A model generated the notes under the pieces. It did not search any database. It worked only from the letters and a program-made list of their open reading frames with translations, and was not told where the DNA came from. DNA of 64,000 nt from Nitrosopumilaceae archaeon (GTDB lineage: Archaea > Thermoproteota > Nitrososphaeria > Nitrososphaerales > Nitrosopumilaceae): the NCBI GenBank assembly GCA_965208905.1, contig OZ242365.1, positions 896,001-960,000 of the forward strand, given 5' to 3'. Shown piece after piece: positions 10,661-51,257 of the stretch (within the stretch, counting starts at the first letter, position 1; every line of letters starts with the position of its first letter). The position numbers and the translations under genes were made by a program.

Positions 10661-12304
10661 GGTTCCTCCCGCAAAGTCGGGTGATTACACCCCCGCCATG
10701 CGGGATAGTCTGTCGGCCCAGTTGCTCCAGCAACCCTGTATGAGTGGTGTGGGATCGAGTATTACATCCACACCACGACGGACTTCGCCCAGACTGGCCG
10801 AAACCTGACGACCATACCGGGATACGGCGCTTGTTCGCCGTATGTTCTCCACTGCATTGACGTCGCGATCTACGCCAACTGTACAACAGTGGGTGCAGTC
10901 TTTTTTATGATAAGTTCCAGTTAGTGGGGTTCTACATACAGCACATAGCTTGGATGTGTTGTGTGGGCGCATATGTAATGCCTCCACTCCCAAAAATTGG
11001 GACTTTTCATAAATTAAATTCGATGCTTTCCGCATCATGGCAGAATATAATCTGCGACGCATATTATGGAAATCCTCCAACATCACCAAGCACCCGGATT
11101 GTGCGGCCCACTGTGCTATACATAATGCATCCCAAACTTCCCATTCTTCTATCCAACATCACCAAGCACCCGGATTGTGCGGCCCACTGTGCTATACATA
11201 ATGCTATTACATTCAGCACGTTCGTGGCGGCGCACGGCTTTGGCCACCCTGCGTTTTTTATCATTCTTTTTTGACTTTGTGTGGTTATGCGGTATGCTCA
11301 ATATGCATCTGCTCATCTGCCTCTTTATTTCGGCGGCCTTCTTGTGTTTGCCCTCCCTCTTGAGTTTATTGTATCTGCGTTTGAGTTTGCTGTGTAACTT
11401 GTGACCACCATGTGTGACTTGTTGCCTTTCTCTGCGCTCCTCTTTTTTGTGTACAACGCGCCTTCCGGTACGTGCCGCATATGCGATATTATCATGTGTA
11501 CGTGTATACGTATTGTTTGCATCCGCAGTCTTTGCCTCCTCAATGGCCTGTATGGTATCGGATAGATCAAACCGTACCATCGTGTTTTTATCACCTACGG
11601 TGATGTTCTTTTCATTGATGTCTATGCCAATTACATCCCTTGGTGTACCGCCCACATACCCCACATCCGTAAGTAGTTCAATAATCTCTGACTTGCCGTG
11701 TGGGTGGGGGTTTTCAACCTTTGGTACTTTGTTGTAATATGTAATTGTATATGTGGTTGGCGTGATCCACAACTCACCTAGTTCATTTTGTCCTATTCTG
11801 CGTACCACATCTGAAGAGACGGGAATTGCTATCATGTGTCGGTGTTTTGATGAGCCAACATTTGCAACAGCCATATATCCACCCGCTATCGGATTCAGTC
11901 TCCAATCTTGGTTTTTCAACTTTACAACCGGATTACGAAATATAGGCTCAGACACCTTCATGCCCTGCGCAGTCTTTGTTTTGTGCGTTTTATAGGCGAC
12001 GACCCCGTCCCGTATGGCGGTCTGCGTTATAGATGAACGTACTTTGGGGTCAGGGCCGCGCATTGTACTATACATCAATGCATTAACACCATAGGTATCC
12101 TTTCCCGTATTATTCGCTATAATGTACGCCACCTCTGCCACCTTCCTGACATGTTCAAACACATGCCGCATACCCAAATTTTTTGTGAGTGGGCGCGTTA
12201 TAGCCCTGCTATTTTTTACTGATGCCACTACATAGTACGGTTCAATGGTGTATTTAACATCATCCAACACACAACAACCACCACCCGTCCTTGCGGGAGG
12301 AACC
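10661..12304 (-). mobile_element. TIR-bounded non-autonomous element carrying tnpB group A, 8-bp TSD TAGTTCTG
   Basis: TIRs at 10661-10683 and 12282-12304; TAGTTCTG at 10653-10660 and 12305-12312. Confidence 0.93.
10685..12270 (-). pseudogene. tnpB: tnpB group A, frameshifted and internally rearranged
   Basis: Split ORFs 11149-12270, 11064-11264 and 10685-11089 match the intact 49678-51231 copy; 53-bp duplication at 11076-11128/11152-11204. Confidence 0.9.
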
Positions 12305-12318
12305 TAGTTCTGTATGTA

Positions 12319-15150
12319 TTATTGCTCATCGCTTGTATCTGCGGTATATCCTTCTATGAATATTGCAGGATGGTATGACCTGGCAAACTTTGCCTTTCTA
12401 CCAGGATCATTAGATGCATCAGTATCGTTTGTATATACGTGAACATCGCAATCAAACTCTGTCTTTATCATGTATCTCATTTCAGACGCTAAAATACCCT
12501 CTTCATCAAATGTACTGTTGTTCAATCGAGCCTTACGTATGTCTGCAGGTTCTGAGAGTATGTCTTTGAGATACTTTGCAATTTTGTTGGGATGTCTCCT
12601 CAGGTGTGTGGTCTTGGGATTTGATGATATATCACTCATTACATCTTTCATGTTGGTCTTGTCATTCTGTACACAGTTTAACACGGCTTGATATATGTCG
12701 GTGGATTTATCTACGTATAATCGAATAATACTGGGCTTTATACCAGACACCTTTACTATGTTTGTAGTGTCTTTCAGAATAGACTTCATGTACCACTCTG
12801 CGTGTATTGTGTCATGATACTTGTTGGTAGACTCTGGCCATGCCGCCATAGATATTATGTTATCGTGCCCCAAATCACTCCACATCTGCTCGGCAACATG
12901 GGGGGCAAACGGCGCAAGCAGTCGAGCCCTGACATCTAATATGTAATGTGTAATGCCTGGCGGCGCCCTCCGTCCCTTTGCCAAGAGACGTCGGCGGTAC
13001 CATTGCACATCTTGCTCTAATGTATACAATATGTCATGTAAGGCTTCACGTAACCTCATTATCTCCATATTATACGTGACACGATTGATTATCTGATCTA
13101 GTTTAGCATGAATCCATCTATCCTCATGTGTATCATAGTTTTGTAACCCTGTCTGCACACCTTGGCATTCTTGTATCATGCGCTTTAGGCGATCTCCTAT
13201 ATTTGTCACTGACTCAAGGTTGATGTCTGAATCCTGTAGTAGTTCGGCAGAGATAACTATTCCCAGACGTATGGGATCCGCACCATATCTTTTGATGGCG
13301 CTGCGCAGAGGCACTATGTTTCCCATACTCTTTGACATCTTTTTACCATTCATCAGTACAGAACCATTGACTACTATCTGATGCGGCCAATGTTCTTTGG
13401 GGAATAATGCAACATGATTCATAACAAAGAAAGTAAGGTGGTTTGGTACCAAGTCCCGGCCAGAGTGGCGCGTATCCACTGGATAGTAGTATAGAAATTC
13501 ACTGCGAATCTTCTCCATCTGAGATGTAACGTGGCTATGTCTTTTACCATAAAATACATAATTGAAAAAGTCTTGGTCCATCAAATCTGGTGTTATATCG
13601 CCACTATTCACAAACTTCATAATTATGTAGAATGCCATGTATATGGTAGAATCCGACAGACTCTCCACTATCCAGTCATCATCCCAGGGTAGATTGGTTC
13701 CCATGCCGTGTTGTCTGGCACAGGCCCTCTCCCGTAGCCAATCTACAACATTGTTAAACTCTCCTGATATCTCATCTGGAAGTATGCTCATCCCATTTAG
13801 ACACTCTTTTGTCTTCTGCTTCCATGTGTGCTCACCGTAATTTAGAAACCATTGATCTGTAAGCGTCTTTACAACACACACTGTACCACATCTACATCGC
13901 ACCTCCCCATTTAGCTCGCGAAATATCTCCGAGTTGTGTTCTCTCTGTATCCACTCACGAATGTCGTCTTTGCATTCGGATACTATGCGACCTGCAAATT
14001 TGCCACATATACCTAACAGTCTTCCTGTATAGAACTCTTTGTTGTATATCTCCGATGTGGCCTCCTCTAACTTTGTATCGTTTTGATCTCTTATCTCTAA
14101 CTTTTGACAGACTTCTCTGGCTGGCACATCCCCATAATCAGGAACCGCAATCACCGGTATGGGCGATATACTGTAATCCTCTGATATATCATGCAGTGCC
14201 ATATAATCAAAGGGCGCATGCGCAGGAACCGACATCACAAAACCGGTTCCAGTATCTGGTTTAGCGAACTGCGCCGGCAGTACGGGTATGTATACGCCCA
14301 ATGGAGTCTTGACTGTGTTACCTATTATGTTTGCGCCTGGCATACTACCAATCTTTTTTACATCACTTCCTTGAAACTGCAATTTGGTGGTGCACTCTTT
14401 GGATACAATCCATTTTTCATCATTGCGCAGTATTATGTCATATATGACATCTGGATTTACCCACAAGTTGGTCACACCAAATATGGTCTCGGGTCGTAGA
14501 GTTGCTGTTGGAATTATGTAATCTTTCCAGATGAATCGAGCCAGAACATACTCTATAAAGTCCGGCTCCACATCACCTAATGTATCGTGCTGTGAGACTG
14601 GATTTTGATCTTCGGGACACCATCCGACCGGATGTGACCCTTGTATTATCAAATTTTTATCTCGCAGTGATGATATCTGCCACTCTATGAACTTTTTATA
14701 TGCTTCATCTATGGTGGTGAACTCGCGGCGCCAGTCTATCGAATAACCCATCTCCATCATTCCAGTCTTTATCTCATCACGAAAGTAGTTGGCTATGTTT
14801 ATTGGTTTGACAAATCCTTCTATGATTTGCTCGGGCACACCAAATGTATCGCGTAACCCCACCAACAATTCACTATCTCTGTTTAATACGCGCTTTGCCA
14901 TGCCCAGTATGGGCGTCCCCGTATAATGAAATCCCATTGGAAATAGTACATTGTACCCCCGCATGCGCCAGAACCTGGCGTTGACATCTGCTAGCGTGTA
15001 AGTACGACCATGTCCTATATGTTGGGGTGAGTTGGGATATGGATAAGCTACGGTGATTGTCTTTTTTGGTCGGTGATCAGGTTCAGCATCAAATGTATGG
15101 TTGTCTGCCCATACGTGTTGCCAGCGACCTTCAATCTCTTGCCATGTCAT
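12319..15150 (-). CDS. leuS: leucyl-tRNA synthetase (archaeal type)
   Basis: YPYPNSPQHIGH, KMSKS, TLRPET; ATGA overlap with alaS stop. Confidence 0.97.
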   Translation of the reverse strand: MTWQEIEGRWQHVWADNHTFDAEPDHRPKKTITVAYPYPNSPQHIGHGRTYTLADVNARFWRMRGYNVLFPMGFHYTGTPILGMAKRVLNRDSELLVGLRDTFGVPEQIIEGFVKPINIANYFRDEIKTGMMEMGYSIDWRREFTTIDEAYKKFIEWQISSLRDKNLIIQGSHPVGWCPEDQNPVSQHDTLGDVEPDFIEYVLARFIWKDYIIPTATLRPETIFGVTNLWVNPDVIYDIILRNDEKWIVSKECTTKLQFQGSDVKKIGSMPGANIIGNTVKTPLGVYIPVLPAQFAKPDTGTGFVMSVPAHAPFDYMALHDISEDYSISPIPVIAVPDYGDVPAREVCQKLEIRDQNDTKLEEATSEIYNKEFYTGRLLGICGKFAGRIVSECKDDIREWIQREHNSEIFRELNGEVRCRCGTVCVVKTLTDQWFLNYGEHTWKQKTKECLNGMSILPDEISGEFNNVVDWLRERACARQHGMGTNLPWDDDWIVESLSDSTIYMAFYIIMKFVNSGDITPDLMDQDFFNYVFYGKRHSHVTSQMEKIRSEFLYYYPVDTRHSGRDLVPNHLTFFVMNHVALFPKEHWPHQIVVNGSVLMNGKKMSKSMGNIVPLRSAIKRYGADPIRLGIVISAELLQDSDINLESVTNIGDRLKRMIQECQGVQTGLQNYDTHEDRWIHAKLDQIINRVTYNMEIMRLREALHDILYTLEQDVQWYRRRLLAKGRRAPPGITHYILDVRARLLAPFAPHVAEQMWSDLGHDNIISMAAWPESTNKYHDTIHAEWYMKSILKDTTNIVKVSGIKPSIIRLYVDKSTDIYQAVLNCVQNDKTNMKDVMSDISSNPKTTHLRRHPNKIAKYLKDILSEPADIRKARLNNSTFDEEGILASEMRYMIKTEFDCDVHVYTNDTDASNDPGRKAKFARSYHPAIFIEGYTADTSDEQ

Positions 15151-17756
15151 GGTAATAACTCCGTCTTTATCCACGATATGGCTGTATCTATATGCTCGGC
15201 TCCCCTGCCGCCTCCCTGTGCAAATCTTTGGTCTCCAGACGCTCTCCCCTCTAGCATACTTGATGCTGTATTAGCTATATGGAGTGCATCGTGTGTAGAG
15301 TCACTGCCACTATACACCATTATACGTATGGCCGGACCACTCTGAAATATGCCACAGTATGTGGCCATACTGTGAGCCTTTACCAATCTTTTCCCCATAT
15401 TTACATGAAAGTATTCATCGTATCTGTCACCATATATGATACATACTCCCTTGTTGTATGATATATCCTGAGTGTGTAGTGATTCAGTTGGTATCTTTTC
15501 TACTAGTGCAGATATAATCTCTCGATACTCTTTGCGCTTATCTGTATGATCCTTCTTTACTGTAGTGCTGACTGATTTAATGGTGGATGTATTACCTGCT
15601 ACAAACTCTAACCGCACTACTCCATCCTGTATTCTTTTGGCGCGAATTATTCTTATGGCCTTGACTTGCGAGGTGCGTGCCACATGCGTACCTCCACAGG
15701 CCTCTATGTCTATATCTCCTATGGAGACTATTCTGACTTTGTCCACAGGTACGACGCCCCCCTGATATATGCGAAAGCCGTACTTCTCTTCTGCCTCTCC
15801 TCGGTCCATATACTGTATTGATATGGGTATGTCTTGTTGTACTATACGGTTGGCCATATCTTCAATATCTTGAATCTCCGTCTTTGTGAGCGCCGAGTGA
15901 TGTGTTATGTCTAGACGGGCTTTGCCTTGGTCCTTATGGGCTGAGTGCTGCCAGACCCATGATCCCAATGTTAATCGCGATGATGCATTAAGAATATGAG
16001 TTGCTGTGTGATTCTTTGTTATGTCTGTGCGCCTCTCTGTATCTATTATACACTGTACTGTATCTCCACTTTGAGGTGGTGTGTCGTTGGTATAGTGTAG
16101 TATGGCATTCCCATATCTTTGAACATCGGTTATCTTGCAGTCGTTTATGGTGCCAAAGTCCGGCTCTTGTCCGCCACCCCGGGGATAGAATGATGTCTTG
16201 TCGAGTATAATGGCATTATCTACTATCTTGAGTACCTTGGCGGTGAATTGATGTGGATCACTACTGTAGTATAGTGGATCTGTAGATGGTAGTGACCCCA
16301 AGTCGTGCTCCTCTTTTGCCTTCTTTTGTCTCTGGTGTAGCTCAGACAGTCTCTCGTAAAATTCACTGGGGATCTCCTTAATGGCTCCTGTCTCTTTTAG
16401 ATACTCGGGGGTTATCCCATCCGACTCGTATAATGTTAATAACTCCTGCACTGTGGGCGGAGCATCCTGCTTTTGTATATGGTTAGATATCCTTGCCATG
16501 CGGCTCTTTGAGGCGCTATATCTGCCCAGTTCTATCTCTAGTATAGTTTGTACTTCTGAGCGTTTTTCGTCAAGTTCTGGATATGTCCCAGATAGATAGT
16601 CTATATGATGCCGTACCATCTCTGCCAAGTCGTAACCTTCTAGAACCTTGGCTATGCGCCGTATCATCATTCTTAGGTTGTATCCGCCCCCTACATTGCT
16701 GGGGAGAGAGCCATCACATATGGCAAATATCAGGCTTCTGAGATGATCTGTAATCACATATATGGATTCTAGAGGCTCTATGATGCTCTTGTATCTGTCA
16801 TCGGATATGCCCGCCTGTGACGCTGCCTGGCGCCGGAGTATGTTTATGTCGGTGCGCTCTAGACCCTGCGCTATCATGGTATAGTATGACTTTAAAATCT
16901 CAGTATCCCTATCTATTCCCGCTGAATCGGTCATTATGTCTAGTATGGGCCCAAAACAACAATCGTATGCGGTGGGGGTCCCCATGGTAATCCATGAAAA
17001 TCTCTCAAGACCCGCACCCATGTCTATTATGCGATTGTCCAGCACGCTGTGATTGTCTAGTGTGCCTTGGAACTCTGTAAATACCGCGTTGCCCAACTCC
17101 AACCCTCTTACAAAATACTCTAGTGATGAGCCAAAGGATCCTCCCCCCACCCAGACATCTTCCACGAATACTATCTCGTGGGGATTTAGCCCAAATGTTC
17201 GAGTCAATAAATCATAGTCCAACTGTATGCACTTGTCTTTCCAATACCCACCCTCCATGTCTGGTACTGCATGCTGTCCTACCATGCAAAAACTAGAAAA
17301 GTGCCTTCCGCTCACACCGACATTCTCTATATCCTTGAATCGAAGGCATGTCTGGGGTACGATTAGTGGGTTGGCTGGAAACTGAAAGGTTACTCTGCCT
17401 CCTGCCACCCTTTGAAAGTCCACTATGGATGCTATTGTGTAGTATAGGTCAGGACGCCATCTACATACCACCGGATATCTGGGTATTGAAGTGTGATTAT
17501 TTGATACAAAGAACGACTCTATCTGCTTCCATGCCTGAGCGTAATCAAAACGTTTTGTCGTTGGGGGCTCCCCTATGAATGAATACGTATCCAGCCCATC
17601 ATCAGGACATCGGTCTCTGGATGAATCCATAGACCAAAAGAATCTACCACACACACTGCATGCCTTCCTCTCAAACCCCTTCTCTGCAAATAGATCAACT
17701 GTATAGTATCGGTCAGGCTTCGAAGAGAACTTTTTGAGTATTTGAGACTTGTTCAT
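15147..17756 (-). CDS. alaS: alanyl-tRNA synthetase
   Basis: QTCLRF, IDMGAGLER, HTATH and EACGGTH editing motifs. Confidence 0.97.
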   Translation of the reverse strand: MNKSQILKKFSSKPDRYYTVDLFAEKGFERKACSVCGRFFWSMDSSRDRCPDDGLDTYSFIGEPPTTKRFDYAQAWKQIESFFVSNNHTSIPRYPVVCRWRPDLYYTIASIVDFQRVAGGRVTFQFPANPLIVPQTCLRFKDIENVGVSGRHFSSFCMVGQHAVPDMEGGYWKDKCIQLDYDLLTRTFGLNPHEIVFVEDVWVGGGSFGSSLEYFVRGLELGNAVFTEFQGTLDNHSVLDNRIIDMGAGLERFSWITMGTPTAYDCCFGPILDIMTDSAGIDRDTEILKSYYTMIAQGLERTDINILRRQAASQAGISDDRYKSIIEPLESIYVITDHLRSLIFAICDGSLPSNVGGGYNLRMMIRRIAKVLEGYDLAEMVRHHIDYLSGTYPELDEKRSEVQTILEIELGRYSASKSRMARISNHIQKQDAPPTVQELLTLYESDGITPEYLKETGAIKEIPSEFYERLSELHQRQKKAKEEHDLGSLPSTDPLYYSSDPHQFTAKVLKIVDNAIILDKTSFYPRGGGQEPDFGTINDCKITDVQRYGNAILHYTNDTPPQSGDTVQCIIDTERRTDITKNHTATHILNASSRLTLGSWVWQHSAHKDQGKARLDITHHSALTKTEIQDIEDMANRIVQQDIPISIQYMDRGEAEEKYGFRIYQGGVVPVDKVRIVSIGDIDIEACGGTHVARTSQVKAIRIIRAKRIQDGVVRLEFVAGNTSTIKSVSTTVKKDHTDKRKEYREIISALVEKIPTESLHTQDISYNKGVCIIYGDRYDEYFHVNMGKRLVKAHSMATYCGIFQSGPAIRIMVYSGSDSTHDALHIANTASSMLEGRASGDQRFAQGGGRGAEHIDTAISWIKTELLP

Positions 17757-17844
17757 CGTATCAAACAGTATGCATCACATTATGAGTATTTGCCTATCTT
17801 TTTTGTGTTGATGTTCCATTATATAGTACATAGATGATTTGAAC

Positions 17845-19398
17845 GGGAATTATATGGAACAGTGAACATTGGATGCTCATTCAAGTATGGAAACATGTGG
17901 TACATGACCACATACAACTTTATATCTGAAATATCATAATATATCATGCAGACCAAGAAAAACATAATCTATAGAACCCACAAATACAGGTTAAAGACCA
18001 ACAGTAATATCACATCATATGTTGAAAACCTAGAGGCCGAAAACCGTATGTGGGTTGAACTTGGCGTTATGGCACGCAACCTAAACGTACCGTTCACGGC
18101 CGGCAGCAGTCCTGACCCATACCCCCGAAGTATACTGAGGTGCGTTACGGTTGCTAAAGATATGATGGCGGAATGGGAGAACGTCAGTCCTAAATCAATA
18201 TCCATGATTCGCGGCGCAATACTGGCAGGTATTGAGATGAAGGACTGCAAACATCTTAAGGACGGTAAAATCTATCCGATATTCTTTCTTGGTGCGCCAA
18301 AACAAATTAAACATAATATGATATGGTTTACGAAATCCAACGTGCAATTCAGTATAGTACGGGGACGACTGCCCGACGGTACAACAATAGCATCACACAA
18401 AATAGTTGACATAACGAATGATGCAGACCGTAGGCGCGGCCACCGCCAATTCGAACTACACCTAACTATACAAGAACGCATCCCGGATAGAAAGATAACC
18501 AGTCTGACCGCTGGCGTTGATATGGGTAAGTTAACAGCATACGTAGCCTTATCGGACGGCACTACCCGCGTTCTTAGATTATATGATACGGAGATAAACA
18601 AACACATCAGAAAACTTCAATCAGAACGTGACAGGTGCACACATAACAGCAACAAATGGAATAGGATAAACAATCGCATTAGGCGGCAACGCAAGGTATT
18701 GTACAACTGGCAACTAAACGAATATAGACACTTTTGTAAAAAACTGTGTGTGGATTGTGATTTGATAAAATTCGAGAATCTTAACCTGATAAATATAACC
18801 CGCAAGGGAGGTGGCAGGATAAAAGGTAAGAACCGCACACTAAAAGAGAGTAAGGCCGGTGAGGTCCGTGATTGGTGTGTCAAGAAAGCACCCGAATATA
18901 ACACGGAAATAAGAGAGGTTAGACCACATAACACATCCAAAAAATGCCATATATGTCAGAGTAAAAACACTGAACGTTATGGCGGTTTTAAGACATGGCA
19001 TAATGACAAAATCATATATGAAAATTGGAGCCATAACCGAAAGTTCAAATGTAAAAATTGTGGCAACCTCACACACGCCGACTATAATGGTGCTTTCAAC
19101 ATCATGTATGGTCACGATAATAATTATAACAATAATTACGATTACACAAAACCAAACTCGAGACGCGCCCAGAAGGCAAGTCGTTTGTGTATAAAGTCCG
19201 GGTCGGACTTGAGGGACAGGATAAATCTACGCAACCGCACGCCCCCACCGGTTGTAAATGACTGGCAGGTAGTAAAGACCGCACTTCCCAAAAGGGAGAG
19301 CGCGCCAACCAAACACACCCTGAATGGTGTTGACAACACTCAACACCAACGAAAATTATCTCTGAATGAACATGTGTTCACTTAAAGATGTAATTCCC
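17845..19398 (+). mobile_element. TIR-bounded non-autonomous element carrying tnpB group B, 8-bp TSD ATTTGAAC
   Basis: Left end GGGAATTATATGGAACAGTGAACA..; right end reverse complement GGGAATTACATCTTTAAGTGAACA..; ATTTGAAC at 17837-17844 and 19399-19406. Confidence 0.88.
17946..19385 (+). CDS. tnpB: TnpB-family RNA-guided endonuclease (group B)
   Basis: RTHKYRL N-terminus; RuvC AGVDMG / FENL / HADYNGAFNI; Zn finger CHIC..CKNC; TTTATA promoter upstream. Confidence 0.9.
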   Translation: MQTKKNIIYRTHKYRLKTNSNITSYVENLEAENRMWVELGVMARNLNVPFTAGSSPDPYPRSILRCVTVAKDMMAEWENVSPKSISMIRGAILAGIEMKDCKHLKDGKIYPIFFLGAPKQIKHNMIWFTKSNVQFSIVRGRLPDGTTIASHKIVDITNDADRRRGHRQFELHLTIQERIPDRKITSLTAGVDMGKLTAYVALSDGTTRVLRLYDTEINKHIRKLQSERDRCTHNSNKWNRINNRIRRQRKVLYNWQLNEYRHFCKKLCVDCDLIKFENLNLINITRKGGGRIKGKNRTLKESKAGEVRDWCVKKAPEYNTEIREVRPHNTSKKCHICQSKNTERYGGFKTWHNDKIIYENWSHNRKFKCKNCGNLTHADYNGAFNIMYGHDNNYNNNYDYTKPNSRRAQKASRLCIKSGSDLRDRINLRNRTPPPVVNDWQVVKTALPKRESAPTKHTLNGVDNTQHQRKLSLNEHVFT

Positions 19399-19480
19399 AT
19401 TTGAACAGATTTTGGAGCAGCAAAAGTCTCATCTGAGATATACCCCACCGTTAATAAACAAGATGCACAACTGCTTTATC

Positions 19481-28821: not shown

Positions 28822-30216
28822 TTACACGTCACGCCAGAGGACGACGGTGCATGACACATCTCGTTCCCCGGTCTGTGCTTGACGTTTCTCAGGGGAGCTA
28901 ACGCAAGAACCCTCCACGTCCAGACACCCCTTAACATGGGTGCTGCCGGTATTGTCCGGCAAGTTTCGTAAGTTTAGTTGACCATGTCTGGCCCTCGGGC
29001 CGAGTTTCTTCAGCCCCACATCCTCTATGTTTGAGCCCGCATTACAGTCGGCATGATACCTGTAGCCACACTTTTTACACAAGAACCGTCTACCATCCCG
29101 GTTATCTTTATGTGTATAACCGCACGAGTAGCACCGTTGGCTTGTATACGCTGCCGCAACCCAAATTATCTCTCCAGCCAACTTGTACGCCAATAGAGCG
29201 GCGAGCAGCCCCCAGCACTGCTCTAGGATGGCCTTATTGAGACCAGATTTTTGCGCAACGTTCTTGCCGGGTTTTTCTTTGGTACCTTTGACGGACTTTG
29301 CCATATTTTGTATGGGTAGATTCTCCATGGCTGCATGTGTGGTACTGTCCGATATAACGCGTGATATTTTATGCGCGGTGGTCTTTCGAATATTTGCGGC
29401 TTTGCGTTTGTTCTTGGCGGCACGTTTACTGGCTTTGGCCCACCGTCGGGAGCCGGGCTTGCGATTCGTATAATTGGGTTTATGCCTGCGCGAGGCTATC
29501 TTTTGCGCCTTAGAGGCTGTTTTTTCGGCGTTATTCATGCGACGTGTGACCTTTTCGGGTACCATTATTACACAGTCAGGTGTGGCCACATTACCGACAT
29601 TCCGGTCTATGCCAATAACGGTCTGCTCGGTCACGGTTGGCTTCTCGTCTGGTACATCACAAGATATGGTAATCCTCCACCCACCATCCGGTAGTTGAAA
29701 TAGTTGCGCGGTCTTGTATCGGTAATTCAGGACGGGAAACTCCCGAGACAGTTTAACCTCGCCCATCTTGGCTATCTTGATTGTACGTGTATCGGTGAAG
29801 CGCGCTTGGCCGACGGTGCCATCATGCGTTATTATAAACGGGATGGAGATTCGCTCACCGTGTCGTTTAAAGTGTGGTTCACCAAACTCCGCCTTAGGTT
29901 TGATGTCAGCAGCCTTCAGCCTCTCTGTTTCCACATATTGGTCATAATGCCTTCCCAAGTCATATAATATTTGGCGCGTCACCCCGGATATAGACTGACG
30001 CAGCCAACACGGACCCGAACGGTTGCGCAAGTCCGTATACCAGGCGTTTATCCTACCCTGTGTGGTGTTGACCCTTCCAGCTCGACGGTACTCCTCCTTG
30101 AAGGTTTCCAATAATTTGTTATACACGTACCTGTCCATGCCGGCCTGTCTGGCCAACATCTCCTTCTTGAACCCTTTACGGAATCTAACGCCGAATGTGT
30201 ATGTACGTAGTACCAT
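28822..30216 (-). CDS. tnpB: TnpB-family RNA-guided endonuclease (group C, IS605 OrfB-like)
   Basis: HTH-like N-terminus; GIDRNV, MENL, KPGKNVAQKSGLNKAI, YTSQRCYSCG..CKKCG..HADCNA; TTTAAA promoter upstream. Confidence 0.95.
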   Translation of the reverse strand: MVLRTYTFGVRFRKGFKKEMLARQAGMDRYVYNKLLETFKEEYRRAGRVNTTQGRINAWYTDLRNRSGPCWLRQSISGVTRQILYDLGRHYDQYVETERLKAADIKPKAEFGEPHFKRHGERISIPFIITHDGTVGQARFTDTRTIKIAKMGEVKLSREFPVLNYRYKTAQLFQLPDGGWRITISCDVPDEKPTVTEQTVIGIDRNVGNVATPDCVIMVPEKVTRRMNNAEKTASKAQKIASRRHKPNYTNRKPGSRRWAKASKRAAKNKRKAANIRKTTAHKISRVISDSTTHAAMENLPIQNMAKSVKGTKEKPGKNVAQKSGLNKAILEQCWGLLAALLAYKLAGEIIWVAAAYTSQRCYSCGYTHKDNRDGRRFLCKKCGYRYHADCNAGSNIEDVGLKKLGPRARHGQLNLRNLPDNTGSTHVKGCLDVEGSCVSSPEKRQAQTGERDVSCTVVLWRDV

Positions 30217-49643: not shown

Positions 49644-51257
49644 GGTTCCTCCCGCAAAGTCGGGTGTTGGTTGATGTGTGTTAGATGATGTTAAATACAC
49701 CATTGAACCGTACTGTATAGTGTCATCAGTAAAAAATAGCAGGGCAGTAACACGTCCATACGCAAAAAATTTGGATATGTGGCATGTGTTTGGGCATGTC
49801 AGGAAGGTGGCAGAAGTGGCGTACATTATAGCAAATAACACGGGGAAGGATACCTATGGTGTTAATGCATTGATGTATAGTACAATGCGCGATCCTGACC
49901 CCAAAGTACGTTCATCCATAACGCAGACCGCCATACGGGACGGGGTTGCCGCCCATAAAACGTACAATACGAAGACTGCGCAGGGCATGAAGGTGTCTGA
50001 GCCCGTCTTTCGTAATCCGGTTGTAAAGTTGAAAAACCAAGATTGGAGGCTGAATCCGATAGCGGGTGGATATATGGCTGTTGCAAATGTTGGCTCATCA
50101 AAATATCCACATATGATAGCAATTCCCGTCTCTTCAGATGTGGTACGCAGAATAGGACAAAATGAACTAGGTGAGTTGTGGATCACGCCAACCATATATA
50201 CGATAACATATTACAACAAAGTGCCCAAGGTTGAAAAACCCCACCCATACGGCAAGTCGGAGATTATTGAACTACTTACGGATGTGGGGTATGTGGGCGG
50301 CACACCAAAAGATGTGATTGGCGTTGATATTAATGAAAAGAACATCACCGTAGGTGATAAAAACACGATGGTACGGTTTGATCTATCTAATACCATACAG
50401 GCCATTGAGGAGGCAAAGACTGAGGATGCAAACAATACGTATACACGTATACATGATAATATCACATATGCGGCACGTACCGGAAGGCGCGTTGTACACA
50501 AGAAAGAGGAGGAGCGCAGAGAAAGGCAACAAGTCACACATGGCGGTCCCAAACTATATGGCAAACTCAAACGCAGATACAAGAAACTCAAGAGGGAGGG
50601 CAAACACAAGAAGGCCGCCGAGATAAAGTGGCAGATGAATAAATGCATATTAAACATACAGCATAACCACACAAAGTCAAAAAAGAATGATAAAAAACAC
50701 AGGGTGACTAAAGCCATGCGCCGCCACGAACACGTGCTGAACGTAATAGCATTATGTATAGCACAGTGGGCCGCACAATCCGGGTGTTTGGTTATGTTGG
50801 AGGATTTAACCCATATATCGTATAATTGGCAGAAGGGGGGAAAGTTTGGACGCAGCTTGCGTCGCAGATTATATTCTGCCATGATGCGAAAGGCATCGAA
50901 TTTAATTTATGAAAAGTCCCAATTTTTGGGAGTGGAGGCACTACATATGCGTCCACACAACACATCCAAGTTGTGTGCTGGATGTAGAACCCTACTAACT
51001 GGAACTTATCATAAAAAAGACTGCACCCACTGCCGTATGGTTGGCGTAGACCGAGACGTCAACGCAGTGGAGAACATACGGCGAACAAGCGCCGTATCCC
51101 GGTATGGTCGTAAGGTTTCGACCAGTCTGGGCGAAGTCCGTCGTGGTGTGGATGTAATACTCGATCCCACCCCACTCATACAGGGTTGCTGGAGCAACTG
51201 GGCCGACAGACTATCCCGCGTGGTGATGTGACATCACCCGACTTTGCGGGAGGAACC
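49644..51257 (+). mobile_element. TIR-bounded element carrying intact tnpB group A (no TSD)
   Basis: Perfect 23-bp TIRs at 49644-49666 and 51235-51257; flanks CAGATGCT and CGTCCGCT differ. Confidence 0.9.
49678..51231 (+). CDS. tnpB: TnpB/Cas12f-like RNA-guided endonuclease (group A)
   Basis: RuvC GVDINEKN / MLEDL / DRDVNAVENI; Zn finger CAGC..CTHC; long basic region between RuvC-I and RuvC-II. Confidence 0.88.
   Translation: MLDDVKYTIEPYCIVSSVKNSRAVTRPYAKNLDMWHVFGHVRKVAEVAYIIANNTGKDTYGVNALMYSTMRDPDPKVRSSITQTAIRDGVAAHKTYNTKTAQGMKVSEPVFRNPVVKLKNQDWRLNPIAGGYMAVANVGSSKYPHMIAIPVSSDVVRRIGQNELGELWITPTIYTITYYNKVPKVEKPHPYGKSEIIELLTDVGYVGGTPKDVIGVDINEKNITVGDKNTMVRFDLSNTIQAIEEAKTEDANNTYTRIHDNITYAARTGRRVVHKKEEERRERQQVTHGGPKLYGKLKRRYKKLKREGKHKKAAEIKWQMNKCILNIQHNHTKSKKNDKKHRVTKAMRRHEHVLNVIALCIAQWAAQSGCLVMLEDLTHISYNWQKGGKFGRSLRRRLYSAMMRKASNLIYEKSQFLGVEALHMRPHNTSKLCAGCRTLLTGTYHKKDCTHCRMVGVDRDVNAVENIRRTSAVSRYGRKVSTSLGEVRRGVDVILDPTPLIQGCWSNWADRLSRVVM

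Follow-up and report, generated by a model that had tools for sequence, protein, structure and literature searches.

In the genome of a Nitrosopumilaceae archaeon, the spacer between alaS and a hemL-type gene holds a 1554-bp insertion, here called element A, with terminal inverted repeats (TIRs), a true 8-bp target-site duplication (TSD) and a single long open reading frame (ORF), tnpB. The element occupies positions 17845-19398 of the window, the 64,000-nt stretch that was analysed (896001-960000 of the 2,214,775-bp single-contig genome G000, contig OZ242365.1, 99.57% complete). We propose, with a probability of about 60%, that element A is a non-autonomous IS1595-type element with a TnpB and omega-RNA cargo that is moved in trans, and that its TnpB would serve retention or homing through a target-adjacent motif (TAM) in the flank.

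The 8-mer ATTTGAAC was found at 17837-17844 and again at 19399-19406, forming a perfect TSD. The element starts at the 5' end with GGGAATTATATGG and finishes at the 3' end with the reverse complement of GGGAATTACATC. In a gapped alignment, the left 39 nt matched the reverse complement of the right 36 nt at 28 positions with one 3-nt gap. Within this imperfect TIR, the match is perfect over the first 8 nt (GGGAATTA) and over a AGTGAACA block further in, and none of 2000 shuffles equalled the alignment score. The tnpB stop codon lies 13 nt from the right end of the element. The original prediction, made from the letters of the window, had described an imperfect TIR of about 40 bp with an 8-bp TSD at 17837-19406, an ORF that ends inside the right TIR and a TIR type other than that of the window's GGTTCC family, and each of these points was borne out. 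It had also seen no matching transposase in the window; indeed, 0 of the 11 PF12762 matches in the genome fall within 896001-960000. The features of element A and its flanks are as follows.

17834..17836, plus strand: ATG directly 5' of the left TSD, a candidate TAM (family pattern (A)T-n-G).
17837..17844, no strand: left TSD ATTTGAAC, present as a single copy at the empty site of genome G005.
17845..17883, plus strand: left TIR, 39 nt, starting with GGGAATTATAT; it matches the ends of IS1595-family elements exactly over its first 11 nt.
17919..17926, plus strand: TTTATATC, TATA-box-like, with the start codon 20 nt downstream; a candidate promoter of archaeal type for a leaderless mRNA.
17946..19385, plus strand: tnpB, from the ORF and profile matches, encoding the 479-aa TnpB-family protein P0001 (RuvC and zinc-ribbon TNB).
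19148..19398, plus strand: candidate omega-RNA scaffold, a conserved and structured 3' region that overlaps the last ~80 tnpB codons.
19363..19398, minus strand: right TIR, 36 nt, which holds the tnpB stop codon (19383-19385).
19399..19406, no strand: right TSD ATTTGAAC.
19399..19418, plus strand: predicted template of the guide segment, the TSD plus ~12 nt of flank, provided that transcription crosses the right end, as expected from the canonical TnpB arrangement and the flank motif.

The sister genome G005, with ~96-97% identity in alaS and hemL, has the site without the insertion. There, window positions 15001-17844 and 19399-19454 are contiguous and overlap by exactly the 8-mer, which is present once (ATTTGGAC). 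Thus, the duplication in G000 is a true target duplication, and the empty alaS-hemL site that the original prediction had pointed to as a check exists. In the more distant genome G008 (~78-80% identity), only ~104 bp separate alaS and hemL. A contig of run X7, from another population, has element A at the same site with 96 differences in 3.6 kb (2.7% divergence), so the insertion is older than the split between the two strains.

P0001 matched the Pfam profile Cas12f1-like_TNB (PF07282) with 53.8 bits (cut-off 26.3), which places a zinc-ribbon TNB domain (CxxC...CxxC) between RuvC-II and RuvC-III, and matched OrfB_IS605 with 22.2 bits, under the cut-off of that profile. In alignments with TnpB-like and Cas12f chains, the motifs GVDMG, FENL and HADYN fall on the catalytic D, E and D, as had been read from the sequence, and D192, E277 and D379 were invariant in a 15-sequence alignment. 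A search for homologous proteins returned only 16 close relatives (72-98% identity), without genomic context. Within the genome, the nearest other family is T440 (40% identity over the full length); P0001 also aligned with the TnpB of family C, described below (27% over 263 aa, E = 9e-24), and with the window's GGTTCC-family protein (24%, E = 1e-4). By its profile matches and aligned motifs, P0001 is a TnpB-family protein with intact catalytic motifs. It had been called a third, unrelated TnpB; the assignment to TnpB stands, while "unrelated" was too strong for a protein homologous to other families at 24-40% identity.

Related elements show the same boundaries. Element B, with 77% nucleotide identity to A, is present as two identical 1639-bp copies and has a TIR of 84 nt at 92% identity. 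The first 22 nt of its right TIR equal the ends of family C (~1.47 kb; 17 ORF copies by clustering), whose sole product is a 450-451-aa TnpB. T474 is a third TnpB-only family (1420-1438 bp) with the same tips and 8-bp TSDs, and three gene-less miniature transposable elements with inverted repeats (MITEs; 115, 372 and 430 bp) share those ends, each with a perfect TSD. Among 21 listed GGGAATTA-ended pairs, a perfect 8-bp TSD was found for 14 and a 7/8 TSD for one. The prediction had turned on whether other copies share these boundaries and TSDs: the A/B-like copies of G005 with both ends recovered keep the GGGAATTA boundaries and have 8-bp duplications in four of four cases, three perfect (AAAATTAT, AAAGATTT and AATAAAAA) and one 7/8 (AAAACTAG/AAGACTAG). 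Relatives of family C in genome G006 (56% amino acid identity) also keep the ends, with a TSD at one of three copies as printed and at a second after a 2-nt boundary shift.

The tips of these elements are shared with a recently active transposase family. Element A itself lacks a DDE_Tnp_IS1595 transposase, its only long ORF being tnpB, and is non-autonomous at best. The single contig gave 75 matches to the TnpB TNB domain, 0 matches to Y1_Tnp (PF01797) and 0 to Resolvase (serine TnpA). It has four intact IS1595-family transposase genes (316-320 aa; PF12762 ~1e-41; NCBIfam transpos_IS1595 173-177 bits, cut-off 75), in elements of 2131, 2131, 2690 and 2837 bp that all have perfect 8-bp TSDs and TIRs starting with GGGAATTATATA(C/G) or GGGAATTATAGTG. 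The two 2131-bp copies differ by 1 nt, which indicates recent IS1595 transposition. Terminal identity with the IS1595 elements extends over 13 nt for family C, the right end of B and T474a, and over 11 nt at the left and 8 nt at the right end of A. One of the two families that the original prediction had named for the cognate transposase, IS1595, thereby has elements with the same termini in this genome. The ends of the ISNwi1 subgroup read ggnnatTAT. The IS1595 family is described with 8-bp TSDs and a zinc finger plus DDE_Tnp_IS1595 domain, and terminal GG is described for the related Merlin elements (PMC8101967); element A has the 8-bp TSD and shares its terminal-GG TIRs with the transposase-bearing copies.

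The association of these ends with IS1595 transposases extends beyond G000. IS1595 DDE matches were found in nine of nine other genomes of the genus as against 2 of 21 genomes sampled outside it. Among 12 scanned IS1595 loci, a GGGAATTAT end lies upstream of the transposase in five (one of them G000's own; two others were limited by contig ends), and the same ends stand beside IS1595 transposases in G001, G004, G005 and G008. The second gene of the IS1595 elements encodes a fusion of a DNA methyltransferase and an HNH nuclease. We considered the second ORFs as tnpB and rejected this, as they are the DNA methyltransferase-HNH gene, intact or broken; the passenger is intact in one and split in the other of the elements at genome 1043578-1046414 and 1770047-1772736 (L025 and L026, respectively).

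To describe the flanks, elements were oriented by tnpB and the flank base was scored in 20 copies of families A, B and C. G stood immediately 5' of the left TSD in 18 of the 20 (genome G frequency 0.229; binomial p = 3e-10), usually within the pattern A-T-n-G, and the two non-G copies also have no TSD. The mirror position after the right TSD showed no bias (C in 5/20, p = 0.49). The same flank G was found at 5/5 left ends in G005 and in 3/3 of the G006 relatives of family C, two of them with the boundary shifted by 1-2 nt. T474, which has the same 13-nt tips as C, had the flank G in 0 of 6 copies (Fisher p = 1.2e-4 against A/B/C), and the IS1595 elements had it in 2 of 4. In the GGTTCC-ended family T568, the flanks read W-T-A in 9/9 copies, with TA at the mirror position in 0/9; in T490, TTG was found in four of seven copies, the same four having G just 5' of the TSD, and one further listed copy has no TSD. 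The flank motif looks like a TAM of TnpB, which is the simplest reading of these patterns. The empty site reads motif, then 8-mer, then right flank, and the candidate target for element A would be ATG followed by ATTTGAACAGATTTTGGAGC. The bias may arise at insertion or through preferential survival or homing.

The 3' part of tnpB may also encode a guide RNA. In a six-sequence alignment of A, B and four G005 copies, the last ~250 nt were highly conserved. RNAalifold gave a common fold of this 3' region with -45.7 kcal/mol and 49 pairs, six of which have compensatory changes, mostly in one hairpin. These features point to a putative omega RNA at the 3' end of tnpB. The 27 nt around the TATA-box-like TTTATATC were invariant between elements A and B, and by the archaeal promoter consensus TTTATATC is a candidate promoter of the gene.

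We propose the following mechanism for element A. IS1595 transposases would bind the shared GGGAATTAT ends and mobilise the element in trans, and would do likewise for the gene-less MITEs with the same ends. An RNA would be transcribed through the tnpB 3' end and over the right end of the element, and would carry the TSD and flank as its guide. At an unoccupied site, TnpB would recognise (A)T-n-G just 5' of the TSD, so that each copy would be programmed to cut its own empty allele. Repair from the occupied copy would then restore or spread the element. Such homing or retention by repair from the occupied copy has been shown for IS200/IS605 TnpB.

In a maximum-likelihood TnpB tree of 27 representatives, which included eight GGGAATTA-ended rows, the A/B group joined T440 (Shimodaira-Hasegawa-like approximate likelihood ratio test 97), a family with a different TIR type ((x)GGnCTGT...), and family C and T474 formed separate long branches. 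The GGGAATTA end label needs at least two changes on this tree, and a single clade of all eight GGGAATTA-ended rows was rejected (approximately unbiased test, p = 0.0098); the GGTTCC label likewise occurs at two places. Since the GGGAATTA-ended TnpB lineages are not one clade, it appears that tnpB and IS1595-type ends became associated more than once. The tree supports repeated association or an exchange of ends rather than one capture, with long branches in play. Of the earlier proposal that TIR/DDE elements captured tnpB repeatedly, the repeated association is upheld; as for capture by a DDE element, we infer it from the shared ends only, because no element with both an IS1595 transposase and tnpB was found. 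A selective benefit of such capture, also put forward in the original prediction, is plausible because the flank motif is orientation-specific.

Several observations weigh against the proposal that IS1595 transposases move element A while TnpB and an omega RNA serve its retention. Inward of the first 8-13 nt, A and the IS1595 copies have different TIR sequences, and the inner part of a TIR is the usual transposase-binding region. No element that combines an IS1595 transposase with tnpB was found. A has a single copy in this genome and occupies the same position in the 2.7%-diverged strain, without sign of recent movement. All of the roughly eight TnpB families of the genome showed TIRs, and most showed 8-bp TSDs (a single perfect case in T523, none recovered in T467). 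The GGTTCC (T490, T568), GGnCTGT and GGGTGTG families have TIRs and at least one copy each with a perfect 8-bp TSD, and the TATGCGTAAT-ended T467 family has TIRs with no TSD recovered; for none of these four TIR types was a DDE gene with matching ends found in the genome. A trans model built on one transposase family does not obviously cover them. A symmetric DDE transpososome is expected to have a palindromic preference, so the orientation-specific motif is unexpected for it and needs an extra assumption, namely selection or homing. As to the protein, P0001 scored 84.4 bits against NCBIfam guided_TnpB, below the cut-off of 100 and over residues 163-387 only, and its AlphaFold model (15-row alignment) had a pLDDT (predicted local distance difference test) of 45, too poor to use. 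As to the RNA, third-codon identity between A and B rose only slightly in the 3' part, from ~0.55 to 0.67-0.70, and we rejected third-codon conservation as proof of an overlapping RNA for this reason. The Rfam search gave no match above threshold, with one sub-threshold U4 match only. In the RNA-library run X1, one 190-nt contig covers 17990-18179, inside tnpB, which is weak evidence and may be DNA carry-over; nothing was found across the right end, in contigs that cannot show RNA ends.

Element A may instead have been moved in trans by a transposase of another family, that is, another DDE enzyme (such as one with SWIM and DDE_Tnp_IS240-like domains), an enzyme borne by an unassembled plasmid or virus, or one since lost, and the shared GGGAATTAT tips would then reflect common descent or convergence of ends. 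The restriction of TIR sharing to the first 8-13 nt and the other TIR types without a visible partner both suit such an enzyme, as does a SWIM/DDE family with 12-13 diverged copies. We consider it unlikely, as only the IS1595 elements combine a transposase, these tips and 8-bp TSDs, and they were recently active; elsewhere in the genus, too, IS1595 transposases are flanked by these ends, and the SWIM/DDE genes have no TIRs or TSDs of their own, some of them lying in large segmental repeats. As partners of the other TIR types, both the 498-aa SWIM/DDE family and 324-aa IS1595-like remnants were rejected, with no TIRs around them.

The SWIM/DDE proteins number 12-13 in the genome, are diverged (53-78% identity) and span ~370-500 aa (e.g. 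genome 1257326-1258822). The representative, of 498 aa, has a SWIM zinc finger and a DDE_Tnp_IS240/rve-like domain. No TIRs or TSDs were found around the genes of this family, which may be either domesticated or mobile.

A more radical explanation is that TnpB itself, with its RNA or the TIRs, performs or directs TIR-dependent insertion, so that the TSD and (A)T-n-G are its footprints and the elements are autonomous. It would account for 75 TnpB matches in about eight families next to 0 Y1 or serine transposases, for a DDE partner seen with only one TIR type, and for a flank motif that is asymmetric, follows tnpB orientation and differs between lineages with the same ends (18/20 in C/A/B, 0/6 in T474); the W-T-A in 9/9 copies of T568 would fit as well. 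Yet known TnpB cleavage is distal to the TAM and not at 0 and 8 nt. Since the same ends and TSDs occur on MITEs that lack tnpB, an enzyme acting in trans has to be invoked in any case, and the ends equal those of IS1595 elements without tnpB. An inserting TnpB also has no known precedent, and TnpB is described as dispensable for the transposition of IS608 and ISDra2 in the work covered by PMC13565253 and PMC3119063. Taken together, we regard insertion by TnpB as improbable. Marginally less doubtful, but still with long odds against it, is the broader idea that TnpB is not a passive passenger: the lineage-specific motif, which adjoins a variable 8-bp duplication, would mean that TnpB sets where TIR/TSD elements insert or which of them persist, and at the extreme, TnpB-only elements whose type of ends lacks a DDE partner in the genome would be moved by TnpB itself. 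If true, a prokaryotic RNA-guided nuclease would here take part in TIR-type transposition or itself constitute such a system.

It is very improbable that the TnpB of element A has been immobilised and domesticated, for instance as an RNA-guided regulator, and become fixed in the promoter region between the divergent alaS and hemL. The single copy, the same site in the X7 strain and the position between two divergent housekeeping genes would fit domestication, but the D-E-D catalytic motifs are preserved, G005 has the site empty, another population has other elements there, and close relatives are multi-copy with fresh TSDs. We reject as next to impossible the view that a Y1 TnpA moves element A as a plain tnpB-only member of IS200/IS605 (IS1341 group), with incidental TIRs and 8-mer: Pfam and NCBIfam do place P0001 with IS200/IS605/IS607 TnpB, but the genome has no Y1_Tnp or Resolvase match, TSDs flank 14 of 21 related pairs here and 4/4 in G005, the empty site has the 8-mer once, and the TIR score lies above all 2000 shuffles.

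Cas12 descends from TnpB, a nuclease whose biology is known almost entirely through IS200/IS605 and IS607, in which excision is scarless. TnpB in DDE-type transposons is already known; the IS1595-type ends are the variant here. Altae-Tran et al. 2023 (PMC10691335) describe six branches of DDE-associated TnpBs that have inverted repeats, as well as solo TnpBs bounded by the same ends; solo TnpBs with the ends of transposase-bearing relatives are taken there as mobilised in trans. As in those branches, tnpB of element A lies inside an inverted-repeat transposon with its 3' end near the transposon end. The partners named for them are IS630, ISL2 and IS1031 (the last two via PMC13565253) and not IS1595, and the supplements of PMC10691335 may list more. 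Unlike those branches, element A has no transposase-tnpB element in cis among the elements found, its TSD is an 8-mer of variable sequence, and the candidate TAM is found outside it. Literature searches on TnpB with IS1595 and on ISNwi1 returned no paper on the association.

In function, what comes closest to element A is eukaryotic Fanzor in TIR/TSD transposons. Fanzor1 and Fanzor2* are described in eukaryotic TIR/TSD transposons, including a non-autonomous Fanzor-only ascovirus element (PMC10711439, PMC13565253, PMC3627910). In these accounts, as in element A, a non-autonomous TIR/TSD element carries a TnpB-type nuclease as its one gene; a guide RNA over the right end, predicted for A, is part of the Fanzor feature set, and distinct nuclease lineages were independently captured by cut-and-paste transposons. 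Bao and Jurka, among the same sources, place the 5' TSDs of CRe Fanzor elements just downstream of a T-rich tetranucleotide. In Fanzor, the 5' TSD is described as part of the TAM and the 3' TSD as folded into the RNA scaffold (PMC10711439, PMC13565253). In contrast, the 8-bp TSD here varies in sequence, which would put the TAM on its 5' side and make the TSD itself a piece of the guide. The hosts also differ: Fanzor hosts are eukaryotic or viral, whereas the host of element A is an archaeon and the ends are IS1595-type (prokaryotic kin of Merlin).

Element A resembles the IS1341-group tnpB-only elements, which are multi-copy, in having a single tnpB gene and no transposase of its own. However, IS200/IS605 and IS607 elements, IS1341-type included, are described as having neither TIRs nor TSDs in the passages of PMC13565253, PMC3627910 and PMC3119063 that treat them, and element A has both; the same sources make the IS1341 group dependent on a Y1 TnpA, which had no match in this genome. 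With IS1595 insertion sequences and MITEs, element A shares terminal GG, TIRs and 8-bp TSDs (as outlined in PMC8101967), and cargo is already present in the genome's transposase-bearing copies. It differs from IS1595 insertion sequences in lacking the transposase, and tnpB cargo for IS1595 was not found in the literature searches.

How an RNA-guided homing nuclease serves a DDE-type transposon with variable TSDs has been addressed mainly in eukaryotic Fanzors. The present genome is a compact prokaryotic case, with dozens of TnpB-only TIR/TSD elements, no TnpA, a candidate IS1595 helper and natural empty and filled sites. The flank motif predicts a TAM and guide for each copy, which makes the question directly testable, and the nucleases are compact (445-480 aa), with candidate TAMs read from genomic flanks. 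The case would be of real interest if the flank motif proves a TAM.

The spacer that holds element A is a repeated target, also at window 17822 and 19445-19454. It lies between alaS (minus strand, 15147-17756) and the divergent gene for a hemL-type class-III aminotransferase. In G005, a 1701-bp tnpB-only element (L041:1392-3092) sits 40 bp downstream of the site of A, with a 532-aa TnpB, GGTTCTC ends and the TSD ACCGTTAA. In the dominant strain of run X5, a GGTTCC-type end adjoins 17821 and a GGGAAC-type end adjoins 19451; the A-bearing form has a depth of ~2x in that run, as against ~60x for the dominant strain.

The two B copies (genome 1455264-1456902 and 2049469-2051107) are in direct orientation 593 kb apart, and neither has a TSD of its own. 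Their outer flanks share one 8-mer, a pattern characteristic of a replicative cointegrate (replicon fusion) or else a very large composite; this 8-mer sits in sequence that resembles a TIR tip. The family C copy at genome 1972621-1975198 (L006) was considered as a transposase-bearing version and rejected, being a broken tnpB with a nested IS630-type insertion, which encodes a 335-aa DDE_3 transposase with ~15 copies genome-wide. The GGGAATTA-like pairs at 791624-795801 and 877208-882782 were likewise rejected as IS1595-tnpB composites, as they enclose host-type genes (transporters, dehydrogenase). The first of them (L028, 4178 bp) has GGGAATTAT-like ends, a perfect 8-bp duplication ATTTATAA and a formate/nitrite transporter gene inside; this stretch could be an IS1595-type transposon that carries a metabolic cargo, or else two solo ends paired by chance, its ends matching at 12/25 positions.

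In the window, stretches of GGTTCC-, GGnCTGT-, GGGTGTG- or TATGCGTAAT-ended TnpB families were found at 28822-30216, 49644-51257, 10661-12304 and 1-248. Outside it, at genome ~1691200-1691430, a 5-nt tandem repeat of more than 35 units adjoins the right end of a T440 copy.

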